A DNA stretch of 40,217 bases from a virus (IMGVR_UViG_3300042154_003418:1-40217); one strand, 5' to 3'; positions 10,636-21,249 are shown, numbered from the stretch's first letter. Notes: generated from the sequence alone by a model not told the origin. Program-made: numbers and translations.

Positions 10636-11649
10636 ATGAACGATATTAAACTACTAGACTTTCCAGGCTTAGCCAGAGACTTTCAACAAACCTACACTCA
10701 ACTACGAGACGAACGATTACGGCTAGCCCAGGCTGTTGCAGAACGCCGCTATCGACAACAGTATAACCAATTGGTCCAGCAATTTTCAGGTTACGATTCG
10801 GAAGCAGGTAGTGACGGCATTGAAGAATCGGTTCGAGAATCACTGGGCGAGTTCGACCCACAAGCGGTTCAACTGCCAGAATCGGTATTACGTGAGTGTA
10901 AACACACGGCTAAGAGTAGTGTGGTTGAAGCTTGGAGTCTTAAAAACTCCCTTCCACAAAAGCTAACTTGGCTGCCGCATCAGCTGTTAGCATACTTTGG
11001 CACTTGGCAGGCTGTTCGTGACGACACAGGCAAGTATAGTGCCACACTAACCTGGGATGCCAACACCAGGGCTCGCGGCGACTACTACGCCTTAGGGTCG
11101 GCATTGCTGGCTACCTCCACTCGCACAAATTTTTTCAAGGATGCGCCTAAGGGTAATCAGCAGTACAAAAGTGTAATCAACCCACTTGTACCAATTATCT
11201 TAGCAGGATTTAAAAAGTATCAAGGCATCAACTATTCAGATTGGAATCCAGTTGGTTTGGAAACTTTGCTAGACCCTGAATTGGCCAAGCTTGTAGGTGT
11301 TTCGGTGCCGGAACTTTCACACAGCGAATTAATTGCGCTACGCAACACTGCCCTTACAGACAAAGAAGGTGCACGAGCAGGTATCCCCAATAATCCAGCT
11401 ACTTGCACCAAGCTCAATCACCTTGGTAATACGGCCATAGGTCACCTACCAAAACTTGCCAAATACATGGTACTACAAACCTGGGCAGCACATCCCAGCA
11501 ATCGTAATGAGTATATGATCTTAGACCCTAACAATTGGGATCACATTCCAGAGCCCCTGATCGGCAAAGATATTTTCTTGCCCAAACCACTTCAAGCCAC
11601 ACAACCCAGAATGGTTACCAGCTATTCGGAACTACCATGGGATGCTTGA
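10636..11649 (+). CDS. D2: T5 D2-like protein
   Basis: NPLVPIILAGFKKYQGINYSDW and LPKLAKYMVLQTW...RNEYMI...PEPL...PW recall T5 D2; precedes a D3-like gene as in T5. Confidence 0.7.
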   Translation: MNDIKLLDFPGLARDFQQTYTQLRDERLRLAQAVAERRYRQQYNQLVQQFSGYDSEAGSDGIEESVRESLGEFDPQAVQLPESVLRECKHTAKSSVVEAWSLKNSLPQKLTWLPHQLLAYFGTWQAVRDDTGKYSATLTWDANTRARGDYYALGSALLATSTRTNFFKDAPKGNQQYKSVINPLVPIILAGFKKYQGINYSDWNPVGLETLLDPELAKLVGVSVPELSHSELIALRNTALTDKEGARAGIPNNPATCTKLNHLGNTAIGHLPKLAKYMVLQTWAAHPSNRNEYMILDPNNWDHIPEPLIGKDIFLPKPLQATQPRMVTSYSELPWDA

Positions 11650-11962
11650 AATGAAATACACCAAAGAAATTTGTGACCACATGGTTCAAGCCTATAATTC
11701 AGGGGTTACGGTGCCACAGCTAGCACAGGAGCTGGACGTGCCCGAACGCAGCATAATTGCCAAGCTATCGAGCCTGGGAGTCTACCAGAAAAAGAGCTAC
11801 TTAAACAAGCGTGGTGAAACGCCGGTGAAAAAGTCAGAGCACATCGAACGCATTGCCATACTCTTGAACACCAACCTAGAATTGCTAGAATCATTAGAAA
11901 AAGTCAACAAAACTGTGCTGGTCATGATCGAACGCGCGCTCACCGACCCTAAACTGCCATAA
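11642..11962 (+). CDS. D3: T5 D3/A2-family HTH DNA-binding protein
   Basis: YT.E...MV..Y..G.TV..LA..L....RSIIAKLS..GVY...KK....I...L....ESLEK.NK; paralog of three other ORFs in the window. Confidence 0.7.
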   Translation: MLEMKYTKEICDHMVQAYNSGVTVPQLAQELDVPERSIIAKLSSLGVYQKKSYLNKRGETPVKKSEHIERIAILLNTNLELLESLEKVNKTVLVMIERALTDPKLP

Positions 11963-12192: not shown

Positions 12193-12230
12193 TTGACAAC
12201 AAAGGTTCTGCACTGGTATAATTTGGCGCA
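12193..12230 (+). promoter_or_regulatory. Promoter cassette copy (TTGACA-N18-TATAAT-TTGGCGCA)
   Basis: Direct sequence match; faces the terminator at 12283. Confidence 0.7.
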
Positions 12231-12282
12231 GACCGCAACAGACTAGGTGTAAAAATGTCGAGCTGACCAAAACACCCAAAAC

Positions 12283-12317
12283 AAAAGCCCCAAGAGTAGC
12301 TAACTCTTGGGGCTTTT
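12283..12317. terminator. Bidirectional intrinsic terminator
   Basis: 15-bp stem AAAAGCCCCAAGAGT/ACTCTTGGGGCTTTT with T tracts in both directions. Confidence 0.85.
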
Positions 12318-12485
12318 GAACAATCACGAGTGCACTCGCTGTTAGTTTTTAGTCTCACACGACGACTTACTGGGGGTACCACCCACGCTAACTGCATCGA
12401 CCCTAAACTGGAGCACGGTCGCAGGGCATTAGGTTATTGCCTGTGTAGCTCTAGCAGGGGAGAAAGTATTGGTTCGGCTCTTCAG

Positions 12486-12777
12486 CCCACCACACGGTTT
12501 ACGACACTGGGCTTTGTCGACTGCTATAGATTAACGACTGTTGCAGTTCGGGGTCGGGTGCTACGGTTCCAGCGCATGCACCACTTTTAGCGACTCGGGG
12601 TCGGGTGCTCCAGTCGAAGCTTTTGCACCACTTTTAACGACTTAGGGTCGAGTGCTCAGTTTGCGATAAGCACCACTCAGGGGCCATTTAACGACAATCC
12701 GTGTCGGGCCACATTAACGAGGGCCAAGCTCGGGTACGTAAGTGCACCAGGCTGCCAAGACCATTTTACGTCGGTAC
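12486..12777 (-). repeat. Array of repeated hairpin units (CGAC-loop-GTCG-YTAAA alternating with GGTGC-N13-15-GCACC)
   Basis: 32-nt repeats at 12578 and 12625 (28/32 identical, period 47) plus degenerate flanking units, one with a compensatory CGAG/CTCG stem. Confidence 0.75.
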
Positions 12778-12918
12778 CAGATAAGACGGCAGTTTATATA
12801 GTAACTGCTCACTAGGCTTACTCATTTCCAGCTAATCACTTTCAGTGGTGGGTCCATCCGGTTTTCGCTTTCGCTACTAGGCTTCAAGAGTCAGTCACAT
12901 CCCGGTTTCGCTGGGTTT

Positions 12919-13025
12919 TCATCCTGACCCTAAGGTACGGCAAGCGGTGATGTGGGAAAATCACGCACACTTGCTGTGAGGCCTTAAGGTTTCGCACAAC
13001 TTGCATGTGCTCATCAGAGGGTTGG
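12919..13025 (-). ncRNA. Hammerhead ribozyme, type I
   Basis: CUGAUGA-GCACA[UGCAAGU]UGUGC-GAAA core; 9-bp stem III (ACCUUAAGG/CCUUAGGGU); GUC cleavage triplet; short stem I (CCU/AGG). Confidence 0.8.
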
Positions 13026-13236
13026 TATCGCATACGGGTAACGATCCCGTCTAGGTACCTTGAAAGGGTACTGACCTCACCTGAAGTCGAATGCGATATG
13101 TTAAATTAGCCACGCAGGTATTTTACTACTTACCATACGGAACATCGTCCAGATATTACGGGCTAAAAAGGTTGGGCTGCGACTAGAGTTTGTTCGGTCG
13201 CAATCAAGTTGTTATCCCAGCATCGAGTGCTGAGCC

Positions 13237-13594
13237 TCATAACACCCATAAGTTAATCGGCCAACGTAATGGTCCACACTCAAATCGTAGATATAGGATG
13301 CGTAAGCTAAGTTTTCTGGCTTAAAGGTTGCTGCCTTTCCATACTTCGCCGCTTACTCCAACAGAGCCTATCGCCGTAACAATTATAGTTGCGCTACTAG
13401 ATTACTGCCACCAGCAAGTAGCTGGCCGATTAACTTATGGATTCATAACACCCATAATAAAGTACCCAGCAAATTCTTGCAGAGTTGCAGCATTCTACCA
13501 CTTTCGCCGTCTCGGCCGAGACCTACCGGTGGGGTTAATCTGCATACATCTAACAAGCAAACCAGGCTAGCACTGTCTGGGTACTTTATTATGG
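13237..13594 (-). repeat. Two tandem domains, each closed by a perfect 18-bp stem and followed by an identical 15-nt handle
   Basis: 13246-13263 pairs with 13423-13440; 13452-13469 pairs with 13577-13594; TCATAACACCCATAA at 13237 and 13443. Confidence 0.9.
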
Positions 13595-13682
13595 ACACTA
13601 AGGGCTGTGGCTCGGTTCCCGAAGGTATTCCCCACAATTAAGACGCTGCTTGACGCGACCGCTGTCACCCAATCTATACTAT

Positions 13683-13991
13683 ATTATAACATACAACAGT
13701 TAACATAATCAAGATAATATTTAGTAGCCTTGTTAACTGCTGTTGTCTTATCGCTTTCTAAGTATATATTATATCAAACTCAATTAACAAAATCAACAAA
13801 AGAATTCCAATCGTTTCCTCAAGACTAGCTTCGCAGGTGTGTCGACGTACAGTGACTGGTTAGTGATTGCGGCTGCTGAGGCAGAACTGGCACCGGTTGA
13901 TTAATCACACGGTATTCATTAAGCCATTCCCGACTGGGTTCTTTGTTAATTTCTAAGTATATATTATATCGCGAAATGGGTCACAGATCAA
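13683..13991 (-). promoter_or_regulatory. Three tandem minus-strand promoters upstream of the ncRNA
   Basis: TTGATT-N18-TGnTATAAT (13712-13683), TTGATT-N17-TATAAT (13796-13768), TTGATC-N17-TATAAT (13991-13963); the latter two share the leader ATATACTTAGAAA. Confidence 0.75.
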
Positions 13992-14014
13992 GTGTAGATT
14001 TTGTGACCCTAAAC

Positions 14015-14323
14015 TTAAGCAAGTTCTGCAACCAGACGCTCAAGCACTTCGTGGTTGGCCTTTTCCAGGCTTTCAAACACTTCTGGAGCAACGCCGCAGG
14101 CAAGTGCCAGCTTGTCCACCAGTTCGGCTTTACGCACACGGTGTTGGCCGGTGGCCTTGGTTTTGGCCACGTACACGCCTTCGCGGCTGAGTTTGGCCAC
14201 TACACTGCGTACGGTTTTGCCCAGGGTCTCGGCCAGTTGTTCCACGGTCTTGCCCGACTGGTAGCCTGTGACGAGTTCCACGGTTTGCTCGGGAGTGTAG
14301 TTTTGAGGGGTTGCTTTAGTCAT
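14015..14323 (-). CDS. A2: T5 A2/D3-family DNA-binding protein, paralog
   Basis: NYTPEQT...GKTVRSVVAKLSREGVY...ESLEKAN; RBS AAAGGA; the 195-aa track start is an upstream extension. Confidence 0.8.
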   Translation of the reverse strand: MTKATPQNYTPEQTVELVTGYQSGKTVEQLAETLGKTVRSVVAKLSREGVYVAKTKATGQHRVRKAELVDKLALACGVAPEVFESLEKANHEVLERLVAELA

Positions 14324-14363
14324 CATATGTCCTTTGGTTGGTTTCTGCGCTGTTGAAGATTCT

Positions 14364-14392
14364 ATTATACGTGAATCAGAAGGGAACATCAA
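14364..14392 (-). promoter_or_regulatory. Promoter of the A2-like paralog
   Basis: TTGATG-N17-TATAAT-AGAATCTTCAACA; the same leader recurs at 15852-15870. Confidence 0.75.
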
Positions 14393-14507
14393 GATCAAAA
14401 TTTTCGTCTTGAGTGGTAGTATCACAAAACATTTCCGATAGTTCCGCATCCACAAATTCATCGAATGCCGCATACTGATACGCTGTGAAAAATTCGTTTG
14501 TTGCCAT
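14376..14507 (-). CDS. 43-aa acidic peptide ending ...DENFDLDVPF (SSB C-terminal-tip-like)
   Basis: Own promoter (TTGCAG-N17-TATAAT near 14536-14564) and AGGAGA RBS; 11 D/E and no K/R. Confidence 0.65.
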   Translation of the reverse strand: MATNEFFTAYQYAAFDEFVDAELSEMFCDTTTQDENFDLDVPF

Positions 14508-14579
14508 CTGCCGTTATCTCCTGTTGATGTAATAATTATACAAAACTTGGACACTTGCTGCAATATCAAAAATTTCGTC

Positions 14580-14700
14580 TTGACACTGTAAAGCTTTTGC
14601 ACTTATAATTTGGCGCAGCAAACCCTCAAGTTTTTGCACTTGACCGCGCACTGGCGCAAGGCCCAAGGTTTTGCACTTGACAAGGTTTCGCACTGGCGCA
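14580..14700 (+). promoter_or_regulatory. Promoter cassette copy plus two degenerate TTTTGCACTT...TGGCGCA repeats
   Basis: TTGACA-N18-TATAAT-TTGGCGCA at 14580-14617; repeats at about 14632-14658 and 14669-14700. Confidence 0.7.
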
Positions 14701-14724
14701 GCACGGTTACCGTGCTGGTTAAAT

Positions 14725-14824
14725 TGTGACCCAGCAGTCACAAACTAGACCGATCAGTCGCAATCTATACCGATCAGTCGGTGACCAGACTGTTCAGTCG
14801 GCATCTATACTGTGCAGTCACAAA
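14725..14824. repeat. Five tandem 20-bp iteron-like repeats with internal dyads
   Basis: AC-N4-CAGTC in phase every 20 bp (e.g. CTATACCGATCAGTCG, CCAGACTGTTCAGTCG). Confidence 0.85.
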
Positions 14825-14923
14825 ATGCCTGGTACAGTATAATTATGACCGGGCGGTTTCGGCGCAAGAATCGTGCCAGGTGGCACAAAAACAACACCCA
14901 ATTGTAACAGTTTGTAACAGTCG

Positions 14924-15013
14924 TTGACACGGGCCGCAAAATTGTGGTATAATTTTGGCGCAGTTTTGCAAACAAAAGTATTCATTTTTGTTTGCAAACA
15001 AAAGTACTCATTT
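14924..15013 (+). promoter_or_regulatory. Promoter cassette with GTTTGCAAAC palindrome array
   Basis: TTGACA-N18-TATAAT-TTTGGCGCA, then TTTGCAAACAAAAGTATTCATTTTTGTTTGCAAACAAAAGTACTCATTT. Confidence 0.8.
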
Positions 15014-15024
15014 GTGGACAAAAT

Positions 15025-15053
15025 AAAACCCGCATAATAGCGGGTTATTATTA
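15025..15053 (-). terminator. Intrinsic terminator (probably bidirectional)
   Basis: AACCCGC-ataata-GCGGGTT with A/T flanks. Confidence 0.7.
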
Positions 15054-15296
15054 AATAAATGCGGATCTGGGGATTTTAACCAATTGATTGAGATAATCAA
15101 TCTCCCATTCATAATGGGCGAATGTCTCATAATCATAATCACCAGTCATTGCCAGCAAATAATCGGCGGCAATATTAATATAGTTTGGCCGAATTTTGGA
15201 GAATGGCAAACCATTATAATCGCTTGGATTAATATCTAATTGGCAAAATGTGAGAATCACGGGTTTATCGGCAAAACTTGGCAAATTGAAAAGCAT
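15051..15296 (-). CDS. Hypothetical protein (MLFNLPSF...)
   Basis: ATG coupled to the upstream acidic ORF stop. Confidence 0.55.
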   Translation of the reverse strand: MLFNLPSFADKPVILTFCQLDINPSDYNGLPFSKIRPNYINIAADYLLAMTGDYDYETFAHYEWEIDYLNQLVKIPRSAFI

Positions 15297-15297
15297 T

Positions 15298-15435
15298 TTA
15301 TTGTTCCTCAGAAAAGTAAACCACACGGTTAACGGCCGGCACATTATCATAATCCTGATTTTCTAAACCAGCTTCTTCTAATGTGAGAAAATCGGTTAAA
15401 TCTTCCCATTGCATTTGGTCAACCAAATCAAACAT
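15298..15435 (-). CDS. 45-aa acidic peptide (MFDLVDQMQWEDLTDF...)
   Basis: AAAGGA RBS; 12 D/E versus 1 R; not in the track. Confidence 0.55.
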   Translation of the reverse strand: MFDLVDQMQWEDLTDFLTLEEAGLENQDYDNVPAVNRVVYFSEEQ

Positions 15436-15455
15436 TATATTCCTTTTGAAAAAAT

Positions 15456-15500
15456 CCTATTATATGGGATAATCCCATATAATAGGGCTTTCGCCCTATT
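15456..15500 (-). terminator. Terminator hairpin overlapping a 31-bp palindrome
   Basis: AATAGGGC-GAAA-GCCCTATT on minus; CCTATTATATGGGAT-A-ATCCCATATAATAGG. Confidence 0.7.
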
Positions 15501-15502
15501 AA

Positions 15503-15835
15503 TCAAATTGGCTTAGAATTAGCCAATGCTGAAAAAATCTTTTCCAACGCCGTTTTATTGGCTTTTGTAAGAGATTCGATCTCATTTTCAGTCAATTTGA
15601 GAATCGCGCCGATTGCATCAGCGTGAGCATCTTTTTTGACTACTGGAGCACCAGTTTTGGAAACGTAGGTTTTAGCCACGTAAACTTTTTCGCGTGACAG
15701 TTTAGCCACAACTGAACGAACGGTTTTGCCCATGCTTTCAGCAATTGATTCCACTGTGACACCAGCCGCATAATCGGCCACCATTTTAGCGGTTTGCTCT
15801 GCGGTATAGTTGACCGCCTTAGTTGCTTTTTCCAT
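15503..15835 (-). CDS. A2: T5 A2-like DNA-binding protein, paralog
   Basis: VNYTAEQT...GKTVRSVVAKLSREKVY...VKKDAHADAI...ESLTKANK. Confidence 0.8.
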   Translation of the reverse strand: MEKATKAVNYTAEQTAKMVADYAAGVTVESIAESMGKTVRSVVAKLSREKVYVAKTYVSKTGAPVVKKDAHADAIGAILKLTENEIESLTKANKTALEKIFSALANSKPI

Positions 15836-16024
15836 TTTGATTTCCTTTCAGTGTTGAAGATTCTATTATATCAGGTTTTTGGCTTTTTGCAAGAAAAAAG
15901 AAAATTTATTTTTCTTTTCTTGATCTGCTACCAAATCCGATCATTTGGTGGCATGAGTCTATTATACTGGGTTTTTGCCTAAAAAGTCAGGTGTGCGAAA
16001 ATACAACATAGGTGGAAACCCCTA

Positions 16025-16091
16025 TTGACAACCTGAAAAATCCGTGGTATAATTTGGCGCCAACTATATAAGCATTTGCTTATATAAGCAA
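16025..16091 (+). promoter_or_regulatory. Promoter cassette with TATATAAGCA palindrome
   Basis: TTGACA-N17-TATAAT-TTGGCGCC, then TATATAAGCA-TT-TGCTTATATAAGCA. Confidence 0.75.
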
Positions 16092-16183
16092 ACACGCATG
16101 AATTTTTGGCGCCCACACCCAATTATACCACGAAAATCCGTTGTTTTTTAATCCCCTACAAAAAATAAGTTATACGAAAAAAC

Positions 16184-16276
16184 TTGACACGGGCCAAAAT
16201 CATATGCTATAATTTTGGCGCAGTTTTGAAAACAAAAGTATTCATTTTTCAAAATGCAAACTTTTGTTTTCAAAAT
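16184..16276 (+). promoter_or_regulatory. Promoter cassette with a co-varied palindrome
   Basis: TTGACA-N18-TATAAT-TTTGGCGCA; 16-bp arms TTTTGAAAACAAAAGT/ACTTTTGTTTTCAAAA. Confidence 0.8.
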
Positions 16277-16279
16277 GGC

Positions 16280-16305
16280 AAAAGCCCCACCTGGGGGCTT
16301 TTATT
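16280..16305 (-). terminator. Intrinsic terminator
   Basis: AAAAGCCCC-acctg-GGGGCTTTT. Confidence 0.75.
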
Positions 16306-16555
16306 ATCTTTTTGGTTTAATCTTATAATATAAGATAATCCCAATAAATACGATGTTGGCGGTATAGTTGAATATCAGGGGCCAATGCCATTTAGGGATA
16401 ATATAAATAATAGTGAATATCTCACCAACGCCCCACATAATCAAAAAACTCCAAGTTAATCCGTCCGAGTTTTTGGTTTTATAAGATTCTATTGCTTGTG
16501 GTAATCCACAAAATGCCAATAATATAGAACCAATCCAGCCAATATATTCCATCAT
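16304..16555 (-). CDS. PQ-loop / SemiSWEET-like 3-TM membrane protein
   Basis: GLPQAIESYKTKNSDGLTWSF motif; three hydrophobic helices. Confidence 0.8.
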   Translation of the reverse strand: MMEYIGWIGSILLAFCGLPQAIESYKTKNSDGLTWSFLIMWGVGEIFTIIYIIPKWHWPLIFNYTANIVFIGIILYYKIKPKR

Positions 16556-16675
16556 TTGATTATCTCCGTGATAGTTTGAATTTGAAAAGGGTTAGTATCA
16601 TATCTAGAATCTAACCGTTTATCTTCTGAAAAGTGCAAAACCAGTGCAATAATCCAAAGTATTTTCATTTGGTTA

Positions 16676-16705
16676 ATAATCGGGGTTATTAGCCCCGATT
16701 ATTAT
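16676..16705 (-). terminator. Intrinsic terminator
   Basis: AATAATCGGGG-ttattag-CCCCGATTATT. Confidence 0.7.
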
Positions 16706-17404
16706 TTATTTTGCAACAAACCAGTTTTTAGTTTGAAAATCGCGCCAATTATAAGGCTTGATATTATCTTTCCAATTGCGTTTTTTGAGTATGGCTTTCA
16801 AAATCGGCAATTCAAAATCACGGGCATCTTCTAATGCGGTATGCGGTTCTTTTACAAACTCGCCATTAATAAAACCGCATACAATCTCCGCATTAGTTTG
16901 GAAAGTCATATTACCCTGAACAGTGGGTTTATTAAATGCGTGATTATCAAGGGCAAATTGGCGATAATCTTTTTTATTGCAAATATTACCAACTGAAGCA
17001 GACCACAAACAAAACTCTTGAGTAAAACCCGATAAATCAATTCCAGTATTAAGGCATTTTGATTTATCAAAAGCCAGATTATAGGCAGTCAATTGGGGAT
17101 TATATTTGCCAATGGCTTGGTTAATCCATTTATTAATGGCATTAACTGAAGCCACCATTCTAGTGCCATTATCTAACATAATAGCATAATTGGATTTACG
17201 TTTTTCCAAACCAGAATAACCCCAAATATCATTGGCCGCTTTATCATGAAACAATTCATGAGTGCCATAATGACCGGCAACTAATACCGCACATTGATTA
17301 TAAATTTTGCCTTCGCGGTCAACGATAATAATCGCAAAATCTGCGACTGTATCGGCCATTGTGGTTTCTGTATCGAGAATCGCAAAATACTGTTTTTTAG
17401 CCAT
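16706..17404 (-). CDS. DEDDh 3'-5' exonuclease (DnaQ-like)
   Basis: ILDTETT (ExoI), AYNLAFD (ExoII), HTALEDA (ExoIII); likely start MAKKQ. Confidence 0.85.
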   Translation of the reverse strand: MAKKQYFAILDTETTMADTVADFAIIIVDREGKIYNQCAVLVAGHYGTHELFHDKAANDIWGYSGLEKRKSNYAIMLDNGTRMVASVNAINKWINQAIGKYNPQLTAYNLAFDKSKCLNTGIDLSGFTQEFCLWSASVGNICNKKDYRQFALDNHAFNKPTVQGNMTFQTNAEIVCGFINGEFVKEPHTALEDARDFELPILKAILKKRNWKDNIKPYNWRDFQTKNWFVAK

Positions 17405-17514
17405 TTGGTTTCCAATTACCGGATACTGCCGGAATTCGCAGATTGTAGCGTTTTGCTGCAATAGAGTTATTATACCCGATATTTTAGGAAATCGGGCAAA
17501 ACCTGCAAATTATT

Positions 17515-17730
17515 TTAAAAAAAGTTGTTGTAAATTCCCAACAAGTTTGCCAAGAAAAATGTACCATTTAGTACACCAAGCGAACGATCACGGCGAACAA
17601 AAGCCACAATCAACCACGACAAAGAACCAAAAGTAAACAAAACGTACCCCAATTTAAACATTGCGCTTGCAACTGCAAACGAACCCAAAATTGAAACCAA
17701 AGTACCAAACCAACTGAGAATATTAAGCAT
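17515..17730 (-). CDS. Small 3-TM membrane protein
   Basis: 71 aa, highly hydrophobic (WFGTLVSILGS...SLGVLNGTFFLANLLGI). Confidence 0.65.
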   Translation of the reverse strand: MLNILSWFGTLVSILGSFAVASAMFKLGYVLFTFGSLSWLIVAFVRRDRSLGVLNGTFFLANLLGIYNNFF

Positions 17731-18106
17731 TTTTTGTAATCGCCATTTTGTGAAAAGGATTTGCAGGTAAACCATATTCTAACATGATTTTTTGCCAATT
17801 TTCGCCATGCCCGCAAATTTTTTCGGATTCGCCAAAAAGATTATAATCGGCTTGATGGATAATTTCATGCGGAAGTATTACATCAATCATTGTATTGAAG
17901 TATTCTGGTTTAGCTTTGAAAAATTTGTAACCCAAATGTATGCGGTTTTCAGTTTGAAAACATTTGCCAGCGCAACGCCAAATGTAAGGGTTAAGTTCTA
18001 TCTTAGGCTCATTGTAGTGAACCAGTGGAGTATAAATTTCGCAAAGTGTATCCCAAATCATTACAGTCTCACGCTGTATGAGGGTTAAGAGTGATTTTTT
18101 GTCCAT
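17723..18106 (-). CDS. SprT-like zinc metalloprotease
   Basis: CAGKC, ILPHEIIH (HExxH), GHGENWQKIM. Confidence 0.85.
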   Translation of the reverse strand: MDKKSLLTLIQRETVMIWDTLCEIYTPLVHYNEPKIELNPYIWRCAGKCFQTENRIHLGYKFFKAKPEYFNTMIDVILPHEIIHQADYNLFGESEKICGHGENWQKIMLEYGLPANPFHKMAITKNA

Positions 18107-18217
18107 GCTGAAATTATACCCCAATAAAACCCGATTTTTTCGCAGATCACATAAAAAGAAGTGTAACAGTTGGCCCACGCTGTTACAATTATTTATGTTG
18201 TTTTTTTGCAAAACCCC

Positions 18218-18302
18218 TTGACAGGGGCTAAAATTATGTGGTATAATTTTGGCGCAAACTGCAAACCAAAGTATTCATTTTGGTTTGCAAACAAAAGTGT
18301 TA
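18218..18302 (+). promoter_or_regulatory. Promoter cassette with palindrome abutting a minus-strand stop codon
   Basis: TTGACA-N18-TATAAT-TTTGGCGCA; TGCAAACCAAA-GTATTCAT-TTTGGTTTGCA. Confidence 0.8.
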
Positions 18303-18452
18303 CCTGTCAAAAATGAAATTTTTATATTCTCGCAGATTATCACGATAATTAAAAGTCATAATCATAAGAACCGGCAACATTAATGTAATCAATATTTTAT
18401 CCGGGCGATTATAAACAAAGTGTTTGATTAATCTTGCAAATGCTTTAATCAT
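18300..18452 (-). CDS. Small membrane protein (MIKAFARL...)
   Basis: AAGGA RBS; hydrophobic segment. Confidence 0.5.
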   Translation of the reverse strand: MIKAFARLIKHFVYNRPDKILITLMLPVLMIMTFNYRDNLREYKNFIFDR

Positions 18453-18453
18453 T

Positions 18454-18609
18454 TTATTTTCCTTGTTTATATTTTCTACGATGTTGTTCAATATCTATGG
18501 TAACCCATTCAAATGCTTGTTTAATACCTATATAAATATATCCAAGTAACAGAACCGGAATTAAAAGATATTCAAGATAATATGAAGCAATAAACCAGAA
18601 TTTTTTCAT
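18454..18609 (-). CDS. Small membrane protein (MKKFWFIASYY..., 51 aa)
   Basis: GGAG RBS; not in the track. Confidence 0.5.
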   Translation of the reverse strand: MKKFWFIASYYLEYLLIPVLLLGYIYIGIKQAFEWVTIDIEQHRRKYKQGK

Positions 18610-18644
18610 TATATTCTCCAAATAATCCCCTAGGGGATTATATT

Positions 18645-19121
18645 TTAGTGACCTTGTTTGCTTGGAACATAAACCCCGCGAATATTAAAGCGATCACAAA
18701 CCGCTTTTAAATAAGTGGTATTATCCTCATAAAATGTAAATTCAGCATCACGGAAATTCTTTAAATTAAAGAATTTAGCCAAACCCGCAATTTTGAGTTT
18801 ACCGCCTGAAGTAGTATCACCATCACAACGACTGATAATATAATCAGGCTCACCCAAAACAGTTTTAATAAACTCATTATCAGCATCACGCAAAACTCGC
18901 GCAGTGGCAATAATCACAAAAGTATTATCGTCTTGCAAATCTTTACGATATTGGGATGCTAATGGCAATAATGAATCATCCATTGCACGATATTCATTCT
19001 GTCTCCAATAATCCAAATCAATACGTTCGCCATTATCGTCAACGATTGTACGATATCTGTGCAAACTGCAAACAATAGTACCATCCATATCGTAAATCGA
19101 AACCTTTGTGATCTTAGCCAT
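18645..19121 (-). CDS. dmp: HAD-family deoxynucleoside-5'-monophosphatase, T5 Dmp-like
   Basis: IYDMDGTIVCSLHR, DDSLLPL, IIATAR, FTFYEDN align by eye with T5 Dmp motifs; own promoter TAGACA-N17-TATAAT near 19163-19191. Confidence 0.8.
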   Translation of the reverse strand: MAKITKVSIYDMDGTIVCSLHRYRTIVDDNGERIDLDYWRQNEYRAMDDSLLPLASQYRKDLQDDNTFVIIATARVLRDADNEFIKTVLGEPDYIISRCDGDTTSGGKLKIAGLAKFFNLKNFRDAEFTFYEDNTTYLKAVCDRFNIRGVYVPSKQGH

Positions 19122-19243
19122 TTTGCATCCTTGTGCGTTGTTGATGTAGTAATTATATCACGGGTTTAGGGATTGTCTAGGCTTTTTTTGTTGTTGAGAC
19201 AAAATAAAGTGTAACAATTGGCGGCGACTGTTACAATTGTTTT

Positions 19244-19355
19244 TTGCACAAACGGGCTTTTGTATGGTATAATTATGTGGTGGTAATGTGTGCCAAAAAT
19301 TTGGCGCCAACTTGCAAACAAAAGTATTCATTTTTGTTTGCAAACCAAAGCGTTA
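19244..19355 (+). promoter_or_regulatory. Split promoter cassette with palindrome
   Basis: TTGCAC-N18-TATAAT; TTGGCGCC at 19301; TTGCAAACAAAA-GTATTCAT-TTTTGTTTGCAA. Confidence 0.7.
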
Positions 19356-19523
19356 CAATTTACCTTCCATTATCAATTGACGTTCCGCATACAAAAGTAT
19401 TCGTTTTTTATCCGCCTCACCTTCGCAATTTGGATATTCTAATTCTTTTTCAAGTTTATTAAAATATTCCACCAATTCACACATTTTGCGAGTTAACTCA
19501 TATTGTGGTTTGATAGTAATCAT
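19353..19523 (-). CDS. Hypothetical protein (MITIKPQYEL..., 56 aa)
   Basis: AGGA RBS; stop abuts the palindrome cassette; not in the track. Confidence 0.5.
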   Translation of the reverse strand: MITIKPQYELTRKMCELVEYFNKLEKELEYPNCEGEADKKRILLYAERQLIMEGKL

Positions 19524-19738
19524 TTTCAGCATCCTGTCATCATTGCAAAATAATCTTCAAATTCTTGATCTGTCCAAACCCAACTAGGGCAGGTATTCAT
19601 AAGCATATCATAATATATGCCGGACAAATTGTGGACAATGTAGGTGTTTGTGTTCATAGGTGTATTATAGCAAAGAATCAAGCCTTTGACGATTGTATTT
19701 ATTAATCAGCCCGATTTAAAAAATCAATCATGTAAGCG

Positions 19739-19874
19739 TTGACACGGGCACAAATTGTGTGGTATAATTTGGCGCCCATATATAAGCATATGCTTATATA
19801 TGGATACGCTGATATATGGGCTGGGCGCAGTTGCAAACCAAAGTATTATATTTGGTTTGCAAACAAAAGTGTTA
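19739..19874 (+). promoter_or_regulatory. Promoter cassette carrying both palindrome types
   Basis: TTGACA-N18-TATAAT-TTGGCGC; perfect 28-bp palindrome CCATATATAAGCATATGCTTATATATGG (19776-19803); TTGCAAACCAAA...TTTGGTTTGCAA. Confidence 0.8.
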
Positions 19875-20192
19875 ATTAAACATCATATCGCGCACAGCTT
19901 CTGCAACTTCTTCATTGCAGCGACATTGTACAGGCACAGCCCAAAATGCTCCACAATTCAAACGCTCAAGTGCAATATACTCGCCCATTTTGCGCTTGAA
20001 TTCATCATCTTTAAAATCACATTGTGCGATTGCAACGTGGACAAACTCACTGCACAAATTGCCAGGCATTGCAGGCACAACCACCACGGTCAAGCCTTCT
20101 GCGGCAAAGCTAAAGATTTCACCGCCAGCACCCTCAACATTTTCTTTGAGTGCTTTACGGTATGCCTTTTGTTCACGGTTCAATTTAGTCAT
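19872..20192 (-). CDS. Hypothetical protein
   Basis: GGAG RBS; 106 aa. Confidence 0.65.
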   Translation of the reverse strand: MTKLNREQKAYRKALKENVEGAGGEIFSFAAEGLTVVVVPAMPGNLCSEFVHVAIAQCDFKDDEFKRKMGEYIALERLNCGAFWAVPVQCRCNEEVAEAVRDMMFN

Positions 20193-20237
20193 GTTACATT
20201 CTCCAGTTAAAAAACAATTATATCACAATGGTGGATT

Positions 20238-20256
20238 GTAGGGGCAAAGCCCCTAC
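20238..20256 (-). terminator. Intrinsic terminator after an A2 paralog
   Basis: GTAGGGGC-aaa-GCCCCTAC. Confidence 0.6.
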
Positions 20257-20262
20257 AGTTTA

Positions 20263-20586
20263 TCAGGTCTTTTCAGCCTTGATGAAATCCGCAATGGCTT
20301 TCAATGCTGTTTTGTTGGCTTTTGTCAGCGATTCAACATCAGCTTCATTCAAGCCCAATGCATCACCAATGTAATCGGCAACAGCATCCTTTTTGATTAC
20401 AGCCTCACCAGTTTTGGATACATAAGTCTTAGCCACATAAACTTTCTCACGCGAAAGCTTGGCAACCACAGAACGCACAGTTTTGCCCAATGCTTCAGCA
20501 ATGGTTTCCACAGTTTTACCGGCTTGATAGTCGGCAACCATTTGCAGGGTTTGCTCAGGGGTATAGTTCACAGTTTTAGCAGTCAT
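20263..20586 (-). CDS. A2: T5 A2-like DNA-binding protein, paralog
   Basis: VNYTPEQT...GKTVRSVVAKLSREKVYVAKTYVSKTG...ESLTKANKTAL. Confidence 0.8.
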   Translation of the reverse strand: MTAKTVNYTPEQTLQMVADYQAGKTVETIAEALGKTVRSVVAKLSREKVYVAKTYVSKTGEAVIKKDAVADYIGDALGLNEADVESLTKANKTALKAIADFIKAEKT

Positions 20587-20678: not shown

Positions 20679-20873
20679 TCACGCATTTTTAGCCTCACAT
20701 TCGGCCGCATAAGCCAACATATTTTGTGCATCACACAGTGCATTATATGCTTTGCGAACCAAAGTATCCTTATCGATACCTTCGCTATTTTGAGCACGAT
20801 AGTATGCAACCAATTTTTCAGCATATGCAAGAGCAAGTGTTTGTGTTTGTGTCATAGTGTCTTTCGTTGTCAT
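20679..20873 (-). CDS. Hypothetical protein
   Basis: First ORF after a minus-strand TATAAT near 20880. Confidence 0.45.
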   Translation of the reverse strand: MTTKDTMTQTQTLALAYAEKLVAYYRAQNSEGIDKDTLVRKAYNALCDAQNMLAYAAECEAKNA

Positions 20874-21125
20874 GGGTTTATTATATCATGCTTTTGCAGT
20901 TGGTCAACAGTTTAATTGAACTGTTACAAACTGTTACATGTTAGCTAGTTGGTTCACAAATCTGTTAGGAAACAAAAGTACTCATATTATAGTAGGTTTA
21001 CAAACAAACTGACTAGGGGCGGTTAGTAGACTAAAGTTTACACATACGCCGTGGCACCCACCCACACGCGGCCTATGGGGTAAAAATCCCAAAACCATCT
21101 GGGTGCCGTACCATGCCTCAGCCGA

Positions 21126-21220
21126 CCCTAAACCGCCCCCATCGTCCCCACCCACCCCAAATCATCCCAACTGACCCCAAACCCCACCAAAAAAATCCAC
21201 TTGTGAGACCACCCGCCCCC
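21126..21220 (-). other. G-quadruplex-forming tract (G-rich on minus)
   Basis: Eight C3-5 tracts within 21126-21185 on plus and two more at 21212-21220. Confidence 0.65.
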
Positions 21221-21249
21221 ATGGTATAATTGCCCCAAAGGATACCACT

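Follow-up and report, generated by a model that had tools for sequence, protein, structure and literature searches.

Gene content and promoters of the locus

The window analysed here is a stretch of 40,217 nucleotides (IMGVR_UViG_3300042154_003418:1-40217) from a viral genome of 104,217 nt (G000), a distant, uncultured relative of T5. The genes between 14 and 21 kb lie on the minus strand, an assignment made in the first-pass annotation and supported by Pfam and PHROG matches and conserved synteny. They form a pre-early-like block (14015..20586) that includes several small ORFs and encodes A2-family DNA-binding paralogs (phrog_1725; 14015-14326, 15503-15835 and 20263-20586), a PQ-loop protein (16304-16555), a phrog_20187 protein (16706-17461), a SprT-like protein (17723-18106) and a PNK-like protein (18645-19121), all on the minus strand. 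Four paralogs of phrog_1725, the T5 A2 family, lie in or beside the region, their likeness to A2 being remote (27% identity). The region runs collinear with the terminal repeat of T5; judged by this synteny, the cluster of elements described below lies within the pre-early (first-step-transfer) terminal-repeat region, and the genes around it are probably the first sent into the host.

Facing this block are promoters of exceptional quality. The perfect consensus TTGACA-N16-19-TATAAT occurs nine times in the window against an expectation of 0.10, and the whole genome contains ten such promoters in total. Seven of the nine matches are on the plus strand (12193, 14580, 14924, 16025, 16184, 18218 and 19739; span 12193-19775), as had been noted at first pass. 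All seven score 12/12 for the sigma70 hexamers, the spacer being 18 nt in six and 17 nt in one (16025), and six carry the TGn of an extended -10. Directly 3' of every one stands T(T)TGGCGC, in the form TTGGCGC or TTTGGCGC, and these seven are the only GGCGC-box promoters in the genome, all within 12.2-19.8 kb. The earlier remark that gene promoters here mostly use a 17-bp spacer was not borne out, promoter-like sites on the minus strand having weak -35 boxes and spacers that range from 16 to 18. None of the copies leads into a plus-strand ORF that has a start signal, in agreement with the first reading.

Organization of the individual cassettes

P1 (class I, 12193..12320, plus strand, as are all the following) comprises a promoter (12193-12222) with GCACTGG within its spacer, a TTGGCGC box (12223-12229) and a bidirectional terminator (12282-12318) shared with a convergent large ncRNA; its predicted RNA of about 90 nt, ending at that terminator, folds at -35.4 kcal/mol (z -5.6). 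In P2 (class I, 14580..14720), the promoter (14580-14609) and TTGGCGC (14610-14616) are followed by an array of TTTGCACTTGAC..GCACTGGCGCA units that lack a promoter (TGGCGC at 14652 and 14694) and then by a GC hairpin; an orthologue is present in the close relative G001. P3 (class II, 14924..15050) consists of a promoter (14924-14953), TTTGGCGC, a pal-2 hairpin (14966-14998), a second GCAAACAAAAG repeat 26 nt further on and a bidirectional terminator (15027-15046) right ahead of the stop of the minus-strand gene 15051-15350. Its fold has a z of -5.4, and orthologous versions of its hairpin are rearranged between close relatives. P4 (16025..16151) has a promoter with a 17-nt spacer (16025-16053), TTGGCGCC, the pal-1 hairpin TATATAAGCAtttGCTTATATA and a second GGCGCC at 16107; it opposes, face-to-face, a minus-strand promoter (16151-16122), and its promoter half is missing from G001. 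P5 (class II, 16184..16305) carries a promoter (16184-16213), TTTGGCGC, a 17-bp hairpin (16223-16275) and a bidirectional terminator (16280-16302) adjoining the stop of the PQ-loop gene, and gives a fold of -37.3 kcal/mol (z -8.3). Hairpin and terminator thus fold together in P1, P3 and P5, with z values of -5.4 to -8.3.

The remaining copies end against minus-strand ORFs. P6 (class II, 18162..18302) begins with a TGTAACAG..CTGTTACA hairpin (18162-18187) that resembles a bidirectional terminator, followed by the promoter (18218-18247), TTTGGCGC and pal-2 (18260-18302), whose final TTA is the stop codon of the minus-strand ORF 18300-18491. The first terminator is met only at 18622-18641, so that the predicted antisense RNA would measure about 390 nt. 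A degraded eighth cassette (19207..19355), already recognised at first pass as a split copy at 19244, is real (19245-19307) and is intact in its G001 orthologue; it comprises a TGTAACA hairpin (19207-19232), TGCACA-17-TATAAT (19245-19273), a 27-nt insert, TTTGGCGCC (19300-19308) and a pal-2 (19312-19355) terminating in the stop codon of the minus-strand ORF 19353-19532. P7 (19739..19874) has a promoter (19739-19768), TTGGCGCC, a pal-1 hairpin, a second GGGCGCAG and a pal-2 that terminates in the stop codon of the minus-strand ORF 19872-20192, with the next plus-strand terminator at 20229-20265 (fold z -5.4). P7 and its opposing ORF lie within a G000-specific stretch without counterpart in G001. 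The first-pass description of a palindrome followed by a convergent stop or terminator therefore fits: downstream hairpins and terminators are present, and three convergent stop codons (18300, 19353 and 19872) adjoin the end of the hairpin module.

Distribution among relatives

The dedicated, repeated, gene-less cassette recognised in this one sequence is conserved far beyond it. The motif search in related genomes that had been recommended recovered the 38-nt unit in more than 117 IMG/VR contigs, at 229 exact sites, whereas only 57 stretches with the unit were found in 596 Gb of bacterial genomes and none of the cultured phages searched carries it. Four near-complete relatives of about 100 kb have 5-7 copies each, all on the same strand and grouped in a single cluster of 5-8 kb that lies upstream of terS/terL; the orientation toward these genes, which lie 1.5-3.5 kb downstream, is kept in G000-G002 and G004. 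In 93 of 204 copies the neighbouring genes to either side are both antisense, and genes downstream of copies are antisense in about 133 and sense in about 40. The homology breakpoints between G000 and G001 (15054, 16313, 18298 and 19346) are all cassette 3' ends, and the ORFs replaced or added between the two genomes lie between a hairpin and the next terminator.

Variation among copies is of the kind that sigma70 accepts. The 241 non-exact copies show TTGAC[A/G/C] and TA[T/C/A]AAT with the TG retained, 359 relaxed copies change only at positions sigma70 tolerates, and about 255 of these 359 have TGN as the triplet ahead of the -10. The elements are, by this sequence evidence, almost certainly sigma70 promoters, and the cassette is a real, conserved module whose purpose is read here from sequence.

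Palindromes, terminators and the GGCGC box

The spacer is a co-varying reverse complement of the -10 and discriminator, giving a palindrome from -27 to -1. Its mean perfect stem is 7.38 bp, compared with 5.28±0.09 after spacers are permuted among copies, and compensated variants are seen. A second hairpin begins 0-10 nt past the GGCGC box in 186 of 204 copies. These downstream hairpins are DNA-perfect palindromes, and their mismatches (n=51) comprise 12 G:T and 10 A:C; the lack of a G:T excess argues for their maintenance as DNA and against maintenance as RNA helices. A limited set of palindrome families recurs across genomes, and hairpin sequences differ widely among copies of one genome. At least three repeat families occur in the cassettes (pal-1, pal-2 and GCACTGG iterons). 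The motif GCAAAC(A/C)AAAGT occurs eight times, exclusively in cassettes and on the plus strand, paired exactly 26 nt apart; it lies in the loop of some copies and the stem of others. Of the 204 copies, 82 (~40%) are followed by a terminator-like site within 140 nt, against 7 of 204 after shuffling, leaving about 60% of copies clade-wide without one.

The box had been taken for a GC-rich discriminator of the stringent type. Its position fits in most copies, at about -4 to +1, but in insertion variants it travels with the arm of the palindrome and stands 14 nt more distant from the -10, in the split copy it likewise stays beside the arm and away from the -10, and GGCGC units without a promoter also occur. 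This attachment to the arm, together with a genome-wide strand-specific bias, argues against the box being no more than a stringent discriminator. Once the cassettes are masked, no pentamer in the pooled genomes G000-G004 is more strand-asymmetric than GGCGC (87 vs 218, p 4e-14), irrespective of gene direction, and AGGCGC counts are 6 vs 64. T-preceded GGCGC, exactly the cassette context, is spared from this depletion (54 vs 64), so the bias may be unrelated to the cassettes and reflect, for instance, avoidance of inverted Type III or ISP host restriction sites. Of the GGCGC sites compared between G000 and G001, 4 of 7 on the plus strand are conserved versus 3 of 22 on the minus strand.

Functional interpretation

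From the observed sequence, orientation, conservation, structure potential and breakpoint coincidence, we infer promoter activity, RNAs and an effect of those RNAs, and we tentatively favour, at somewhat below even confidence, cassettes that are real host-RNAP promoters serving as boundary and antisense modules. Very strong sigma70 promoters would form the core of a non-coding module that marks the 3' edge of every pre-early gene unit and is conserved within an uncultured T5-like phage clade. On DNA entry they would fire counter to pre-early transcription, toward the left genome end, and the transcript would begin in or just past the GGCGC box and immediately fold into a perfect hairpin. Copies followed by a bidirectional terminator (P1, P3, P5; ~40% clade-wide) would yield a stable ncRNA that is short, at 30-130 nt; where accessory ORFs are inserted between hairpin and terminator (P6, the split copy and P7), antisense RNA would run over them. 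Head-on transcription and hairpins could together act as a directional boundary that insulates adjacent gene units and damps accessory genes, while the 38-nt unit may serve as a homology patch for gene-module exchange, like the promoter-early stem-loops (PeSLs) of T4-type phages. Several observations sit uneasily with such boundaries: the cassettes are flanked in any case by bidirectional terminators distinct from them, so that a boundary role seems partly redundant; a plain promoter needs no -27 to -1 palindrome co-varying with the -10; the GGCGC strand bias is left unexplained; and close relatives differ by a rearrangement of the P3 hairpin, the hairpins being DNA-perfect without G:U bias. 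The decoy role for host shut-off raised at first pass is probably to be set aside, as seven sites per genome seem too few to titrate RNA polymerase.

The chief rival, which we regard as a real though unlikely contender, holds that the GGCGC box and palindromes are a DNA-level signal read on one strand by a phage or host protein, with the promoter loading RNA polymerase at the box or being switched by a nick. A T5-type site-specific nick is the leading candidate, an injection-pause or packaging signal being alternatives. The box following the arm rather than the -10, the promoter-less units, the DNA-perfect palindromes, the asymmetry outside cassettes whatever the gene direction and the better conservation of plus-strand sites all suit this explanation, whereas the sparing of T-preceded GGCGC speaks against it. 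For a nick in particular, the T5 injection-stop nick has a palindrome after it and TTTGCAC before it, like the TTTGCACTGGCGCA units here, and the cassette strand corresponds by synteny to the nicked (minus) strand of T5 (PMC10644984). Against it, T5 nick sites lack an upstream promoter and are spread along the genome without clustering, the T5 genome shows no GCGC strand asymmetry, only 5-6 nt are common to the box and the T5 site, and the window has no DnaA-box cluster like that of the T5 iss. A more specific and decidedly improbable version places a T5-type nick or strand-specific signal on the non-template strand at the promoter start point. If true, virion DNA would enter pre-nicked, promoters with GC-rich starts could open without supercoiling, and opening would be restricted to freshly injected DNA, giving a burst of backward transcription in the first minutes only; the long-unexplained T5 nicks would be tied to two-step injection, and the avoidance of stray GGCGC on that strand would be explained.

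It is improbable that the cassettes encode trans-acting sRNAs or RNA decoys, hairpin RNAs that would be made in the first minute and act on host factors, defence or phage mRNAs. P1, P3 and P5 do have the expected order of promoter, 5' hairpin, single-stranded stretch and intrinsic terminator, and the terminated share clade-wide, the paired motif confined to plus-strand cassettes and the recurrence of hairpin families across genomes agree with it. The stems lack G:U bias, though, hairpin sequences are diverse within one genome, most copies are unterminated, the conserved motif shifts between loop and stem, and an Rfam search of the cassettes matched no family. The short RNAs proposed at first pass fit three of the eight copies here (predicted RNAs of ~90 nt) and the terminated fraction of the clade, not the remaining copies.

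Slightly less probable again are putative operators for the A2-family paralogs, in which accumulating pre-early proteins would switch the backward promoters and so time pre-early shut-off or second-step transfer. Four paralogs at hand, at least three repeat families, few palindrome families common to several genomes and DNA-perfect palindromes placed over the -10 and past +1, where a repressor would block RNA polymerase, are consistent with it. Half-sites co-vary within single copies of one genome, however, which argues for structure or copy-correction rather than recognition by a single protein, and the A2 similarity is remote. Finally, feeding of late terS/terL transcription in concatemers, with antisense silencing of pre-early genes, is highly improbable despite the conserved orientation, since several plus-strand terminators intervene (15027-15046, 16280-16302, 18622-18641 and 20229-20265), terS has its own promoter (21201-21230) and no antiterminator was identified.

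Comparison with known systems

The lambda oop RNA and the PR'-tR' 6S transcript also come from strong constitutive promoters that yield short, terminated non-coding transcripts, and oop converges on the 3' end of a gene, to which it is antisense. Unlike the cassettes, each is present once and has a known partner (cII, Q), and they have no repeated cassette, GGCGC box or promoter-embedded palindrome.

The first-step-transfer DNA of T5 contains the untranslated regions RR1-RR3 and an injection stop signal (Davison, bioRxiv 10.1101/866236). Conserved non-coding repeats, inverted repeats and palindromes among terminal-repeat pre-early genes are common to both, but T5 has paired DnaA boxes and large inverted repeats, whereas DnaA boxes are unenriched in the window. 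No consensus backward promoters are described there (10.1101/866236), and we found no promoter of the cassette kind in the T5 terminal repeat. The T5/BF23 nicks follow the consensus R|GCGCRGG, all on one strand (AY543070 annotation; PMC3517423; PMC10644984), with major nicks at AAAA|GCGCAGGG and GAGA|GCGCAGGG (PMC3517423). The cassettes share the GCGC core after a purine (G|GCGC) and the restriction to one strand, their plus strand being the late-gene coding strand like the nicked minus strand of T5; the terminal-repeat nick, too, lies in a repeat-rich injection-stop region beside a palindrome and a TTTGCAC repeat. In contrast, T5 needs RGG after GCGC where the cassettes have AG or C, its sites are dispersed over the genome and lack a promoter, and GGCGC has no strand bias in T5, nicking in the cassettes being putative.

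The closest analogues are the PeSL cassettes of T4-type phages (Arbiol et al. 2010, PMC2839356; Comeau et al. 2014, PMC4122927), which qualify the first-pass impression of an undescribed element. Both are repeated intergenic modules (~70-100 nt in PeSLs) with a strong sigma70-like promoter and a stem-loop between the -35 and -10 or overlapping the -10; both are concentrated among small accessory genes and coincide with indel or replacement breakpoints of close relatives, here G000 and G001. New here are the co-varying spacer, the DNA-perfect palindromes, the terminated ~40% of copies, the breakpoints at 3' ends and the GGCGC asymmetry. The impression of novelty holds in that PeSLs are co-oriented with genes, drive ORFs and end in a Shine-Dalgarno sequence and start codon, whereas the present cassettes are antisense and gene-less, keep to one strand within the pre-early region of T5-like siphoviruses, and add an invariant GGCGC box and a second perfect palindrome.

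Results

Opposed consensus promoters

The first-pass annotation placed at least seven sigma70 promoters on the plus strand, facing minus-strand genes from 14 to 21 kb and lacking a downstream ORF, and each of these observations was reproduced. The pattern TTGACA-N16-19-TATAAT has nine matches in the window against 0.10 expected, and seven of the nine are on the plus strand, at 12193, 14580, 14924, 16025, 16184, 18218 and 19739 (cassettes P1 to P7). The spacer is 18 nt in six of these seven, TGn is likewise present in six, and a box (TTGGCGC or TTTGGCGC) lies directly 3' of all seven. The circular 104,217-nt assembly, whose first 40 kb make up the window, contains 10 perfect-consensus promoters; all seven with the box lie within 12.2-19.8 kb. 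The minus-strand orientation of the 14-21 kb genes is true for ORFs with family matches, which encode three small DNA-binding paralogs and PQ-loop, SprT-like and PNK-like proteins.

No plus-strand ORF stands behind any cassette. Overlooked small ORFs were rejected, as none has a start signal, and tRNA or known RNA genes were rejected as well: ARAGORN gave a single tRNA-like element, at 13023-13097(-), and Rfam returned nothing relevant at the gathering threshold or at E<=1 for the transcribed parts of the cassettes. On sequence grounds, the case for reading the cassettes as promoters is strong, and a plain promoter would require neither the box nor the co-varying palindrome described below.

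The unit has the consensus aaaCcCTTGACAcGGgCCAAAATTATATGnTATAAT(T)TTGGCGC. Its promoter palindrome, one of the repeat elements of the region alongside pal-1, pal-2 and the GCACTGGCGC units, extends from about -27 to -1, with a spacer arm GCCAAAATTATA that is the reverse complement of TATAATTTTGGC and a TGn loop. The arms co-vary (ATTGTA/TACAAT, ATTTTA/TAAAAT, CCGAAAT/ATTTCGG, GCCGATTTTAT/ATAAAATCGGC and matched A/T-run lengths), and an insertion variant has a longer stem, with GGCGCC displaced 14 nt from the -10. Measured in a flexible register, since loop-length variation blurs a fixed-register pairing test, the mean best perfect stem across 359 copies was 7.38 bp, versus 5.28±0.09 with spacers permuted among copies and 2.75 with spacer letters shuffled. 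The window copies have a less perfect palindrome (stems of 4-8 bp), and P1 and P2 have a GCACT spacer instead.

Distribution of the cassette

The motif search of related genomes proposed in the first-pass annotation was productive. An exact 19-base pattern matched more than 117 IMG/VR stretches at no fewer than 229 sites (at least 206 unique), often with several per contig on one strand, and a profile search found a further 241 non-exact copies. Four near-complete relatives of ~100 kb carry 5-7 copies apiece on a single strand in one 5-8 kb cluster; a reversed-pattern control in near-complete relatives gave 0 matches. The 39-nt unit is absent from cultured phages and GenBank phages. A general bacterial promoter or a mimic of host rRNA promoters was rejected, as 596 Gb of bacterial genomes yielded only 57 stretches, the multi-copy ones resembling mis-binned phage contigs. 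Of 204 copies, 93 have antisense long ORFs on both flanks; the downstream ORF is antisense in ~133 and sense in ~40.

Homology breaks at cassette ends

Against a close relative (G001, whose genes are ~80% identical at the nucleotide level), conservation is higher in the promoters and most hairpins than in the genes. The degraded eighth cassette near 19245 is intact in G001, the promoter half of P4 is missing from it, and the P3 hairpin there uses the same motif, rebuilt inverted rather than direct. Collinear homology is broken at 15054, 16313, 18298 and 19346, each of which is a cassette 3' end; replaced or extra ORFs occupy the interval from the hairpin to the bidirectional terminator that follows it, and G001 has no equivalent of the P7 stretch. 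Breakpoint behavior of this kind has been described for promoter-early stem-loop (PeSL) cassettes of T4-type phages (PMC2839356, PMC4122927). The likeliest function, in our tentative view, is that of a boundary/antisense module with PeSL-like exchange; this reading and the four alternatives considered below are not mutually exclusive. The GC content is 33-37% across 15000-20000 versus 43-49% in the flanks, consistent with exchange of accessory genes in this region.

Strand bias of GGCGC

A signal acting at the DNA level through GGCGC is a possible alternative, though a doubtful one. Outside 12-20 kb, GGCGC occurs 15 times on the plus strand versus 43 on the minus strand, a bias that tracks absolute strand and not gene direction (7 versus 21 in plus-strand genes, 3 versus 17 in minus-strand genes). 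With cassettes masked, the cassette strand and the other strand hold 16 and 46 sites in this genome (p 1.8e-4), 17 and 47 in G001 (p 2.3e-4), 8 and 38 in G002 (p 9.2e-6) and 17 and 45 in G004 (p 5.0e-4); the counts in G003, 29 and 42, do not differ significantly (p 0.15). An all-k-mer screen of these five genomes returned GGCGC as the most asymmetric pentamer (87 versus 218, p 4e-14) and AGGCGC as the top hexamer (6 versus 64). Depletion on the cassette strand outside cassettes is 2.5-5x, with T-preceded sites spared (54 versus 64), and among alignable sites 4/7 on the plus strand versus 3/22 on the minus strand are kept in G001. From these strand biases we infer that GGCGC is read strand-specifically by something in the clade; candidates are a nickase, a signal for injection or packaging, and the need to avoid a Type III-like enzyme of the host. 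A link between the bias and the cassettes is suggestive.

The minus strand of T5 carries the major nicks, which read R|GCGCRGG (PMC3517423). T5 itself, the positive control for the nick idea, shows no GCGC strand bias, and a literature search on a T5 nickase or nick function yielded nothing usable. An opposite GGCGC bias in G005, which is not a close relative, was rejected as a tandem-array artefact. That phage (an IMG/VR contig of L016) carries about a hundred GGCGCTCAAGGCG-type units in tandem on one strand at ~85-94 kb, and also three TTGGCGC promoters.

Hairpins and predicted transcripts

A near-perfect hairpin begins 0-10 nt past the box in 186 of 204 copies, with stems mostly of 10-13 bp whose sequences form families differing between copies and between genomes. 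In 82/204 copies the next 140 nt include a terminator-like site, versus 7/204 after shuffling. P1, P3 and P5 are predicted to give folded hairpin-plus-terminator RNAs of ~90 nt (z -5.4 to -8.3), as trans-acting sRNAs might; we consider such a role unlikely, and the DNA-perfect stems weaken an RNA-only reading. The hairpins have no RNA-type wobble bias (12 G:T versus 10 A:C among 51 mismatches), and without a G:T excess the palindromes look maintained at the DNA level. In P6, the degraded copy and P7, the hairpin is followed by an antisense run into small ORFs, and these small ORFs take their stop codons from the final TTA of the hairpin module. GCAAAC(A/C)AAAG occurs eight times in the genome, always on the plus strand and within cassettes, in pairs exactly 26 nt apart.

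Setting in probable first-injected DNA

Neither megablast nor blastn found close phage relatives in GenBank; the terminase alone finds T5-like Vibrio phages, to whose large terminases it is ~49% identical. In reverse orientation, the window shares the T5 gene order: the late genes (terS, terL, portal and others) come first, the terminal repeat and its pre-early genes next, and the early genes last. The phrog_1725 profile, matched by the T5 pre-early DNA-binding protein A2 (E 4e-52), is also matched nearly end to end by the three minus-strand paralogs and a fourth at 11642-11962(+), with 27% identity to A2 in pairwise comparison. Together, the collinearity and these paralogs place the cassettes inside probable first-step-transfer DNA. 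The cassettes point toward the end expected to enter first, on the homologue of the T5 nicked strand. With A2-family proteins encoded nearby, the palindromes could serve as their operators, which we consider improbable. In the four relatives, the clusters lie 1.5-3.5 kb upstream of terS/terL and are co-directional with them. Late read-through is considered very improbable; RNA-polymerase decoys for host shut-off, suggested in the first-pass annotation, are unlikely from numbers alone.

The fourth paralog overlaps the end of 10636-11649(+), a 337-aa protein without known family, and the two may be an A1/A2-like pair on the far side of the putative ncRNA region. At two minus-strand gene promoters, 18104-18118(-) (TATAAT-TTCAGC-ATG) and 20871-20885(-) (TATAAT-AAACCC-ATG), six bases separate TATAAT from ATG, putting its A in seventh position. 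Their mRNAs are probably leaderless pre-early transcripts, a reading that would start the SprT-like gene at 18106, not 18211. A C-rich, ORF-free tract of ~180 nt with CCCA/CCCC repeats (21040-21225) immediately precedes the promoter of terS (21201-21230) and is a candidate physical genome end or packaging site; 20680-21008 has no homology in G001.

Discussion

T5-like phages are a model for DNA injection in two steps. The present clade offers a cleaner, more stereotyped version of T5-type first-injected non-coding DNA, and bears on two of the oldest T5 puzzles: the role of this repeat-rich DNA and the reason for strand-specific GCGC nicks. Its 38-nt promoter-palindrome unit has a fixed GGCGC box and is always backward and always in the pre-early region. 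Hundreds of natural variants already reveal which positions co-vary, and the unit provides experimental handles in promoter activity, nick mapping and A2-family protein binding.

Some neighboring elements also recall T5. The ORF-free, GC-richer 1.3 kb at 12330-13670(-), bounded by a minus-strand promoter (13683-13712) and a bidirectional terminator (12282-12318), contains the tRNA-Glu-like element at 13023-13097 and, between 12548 and 12641, tandem repeats of 47 nt; it probably encodes a large structured ncRNA, analogous to the 719-nt 'RNAX' beside a tRNA in T5. Two copies of iteron-like GCACTTGTTGCAGCTTAGGGTCA lie immediately upstream of P1 (12105-12172), and iteron-like TTTGCACTTGAC..GCACTGGCGCA units lie 3' of P2 (14617-14700). 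Between P2 and P3, 14725-14830 holds about six spaced (C/T)CAGTC(A/G) motifs, for example CCGATCAGTCG and CAGCAGTCACAAA, partly kept in G001. A DnaA-box cluster like that of the T5 iss is not enriched in the window. Both sets of iterons share TTTGCAC with the T5 DRD repeats beside the injection-stop nick. The nick within the T5 terminal repeat has TTTGCAC before it and a palindrome after it, and the TTTGCACTTGAC..GCACTGGCGCA units adjoining P2 are similar and promoter-less. The breaks in homology with G001 at cassette ends, in turn, resemble those at PeSL cassettes (PMC2839356, PMC4122927), extending the idea of promoter/stem-loop cassettes as gene-module exchange junctions from T4-type to T5-type phages.
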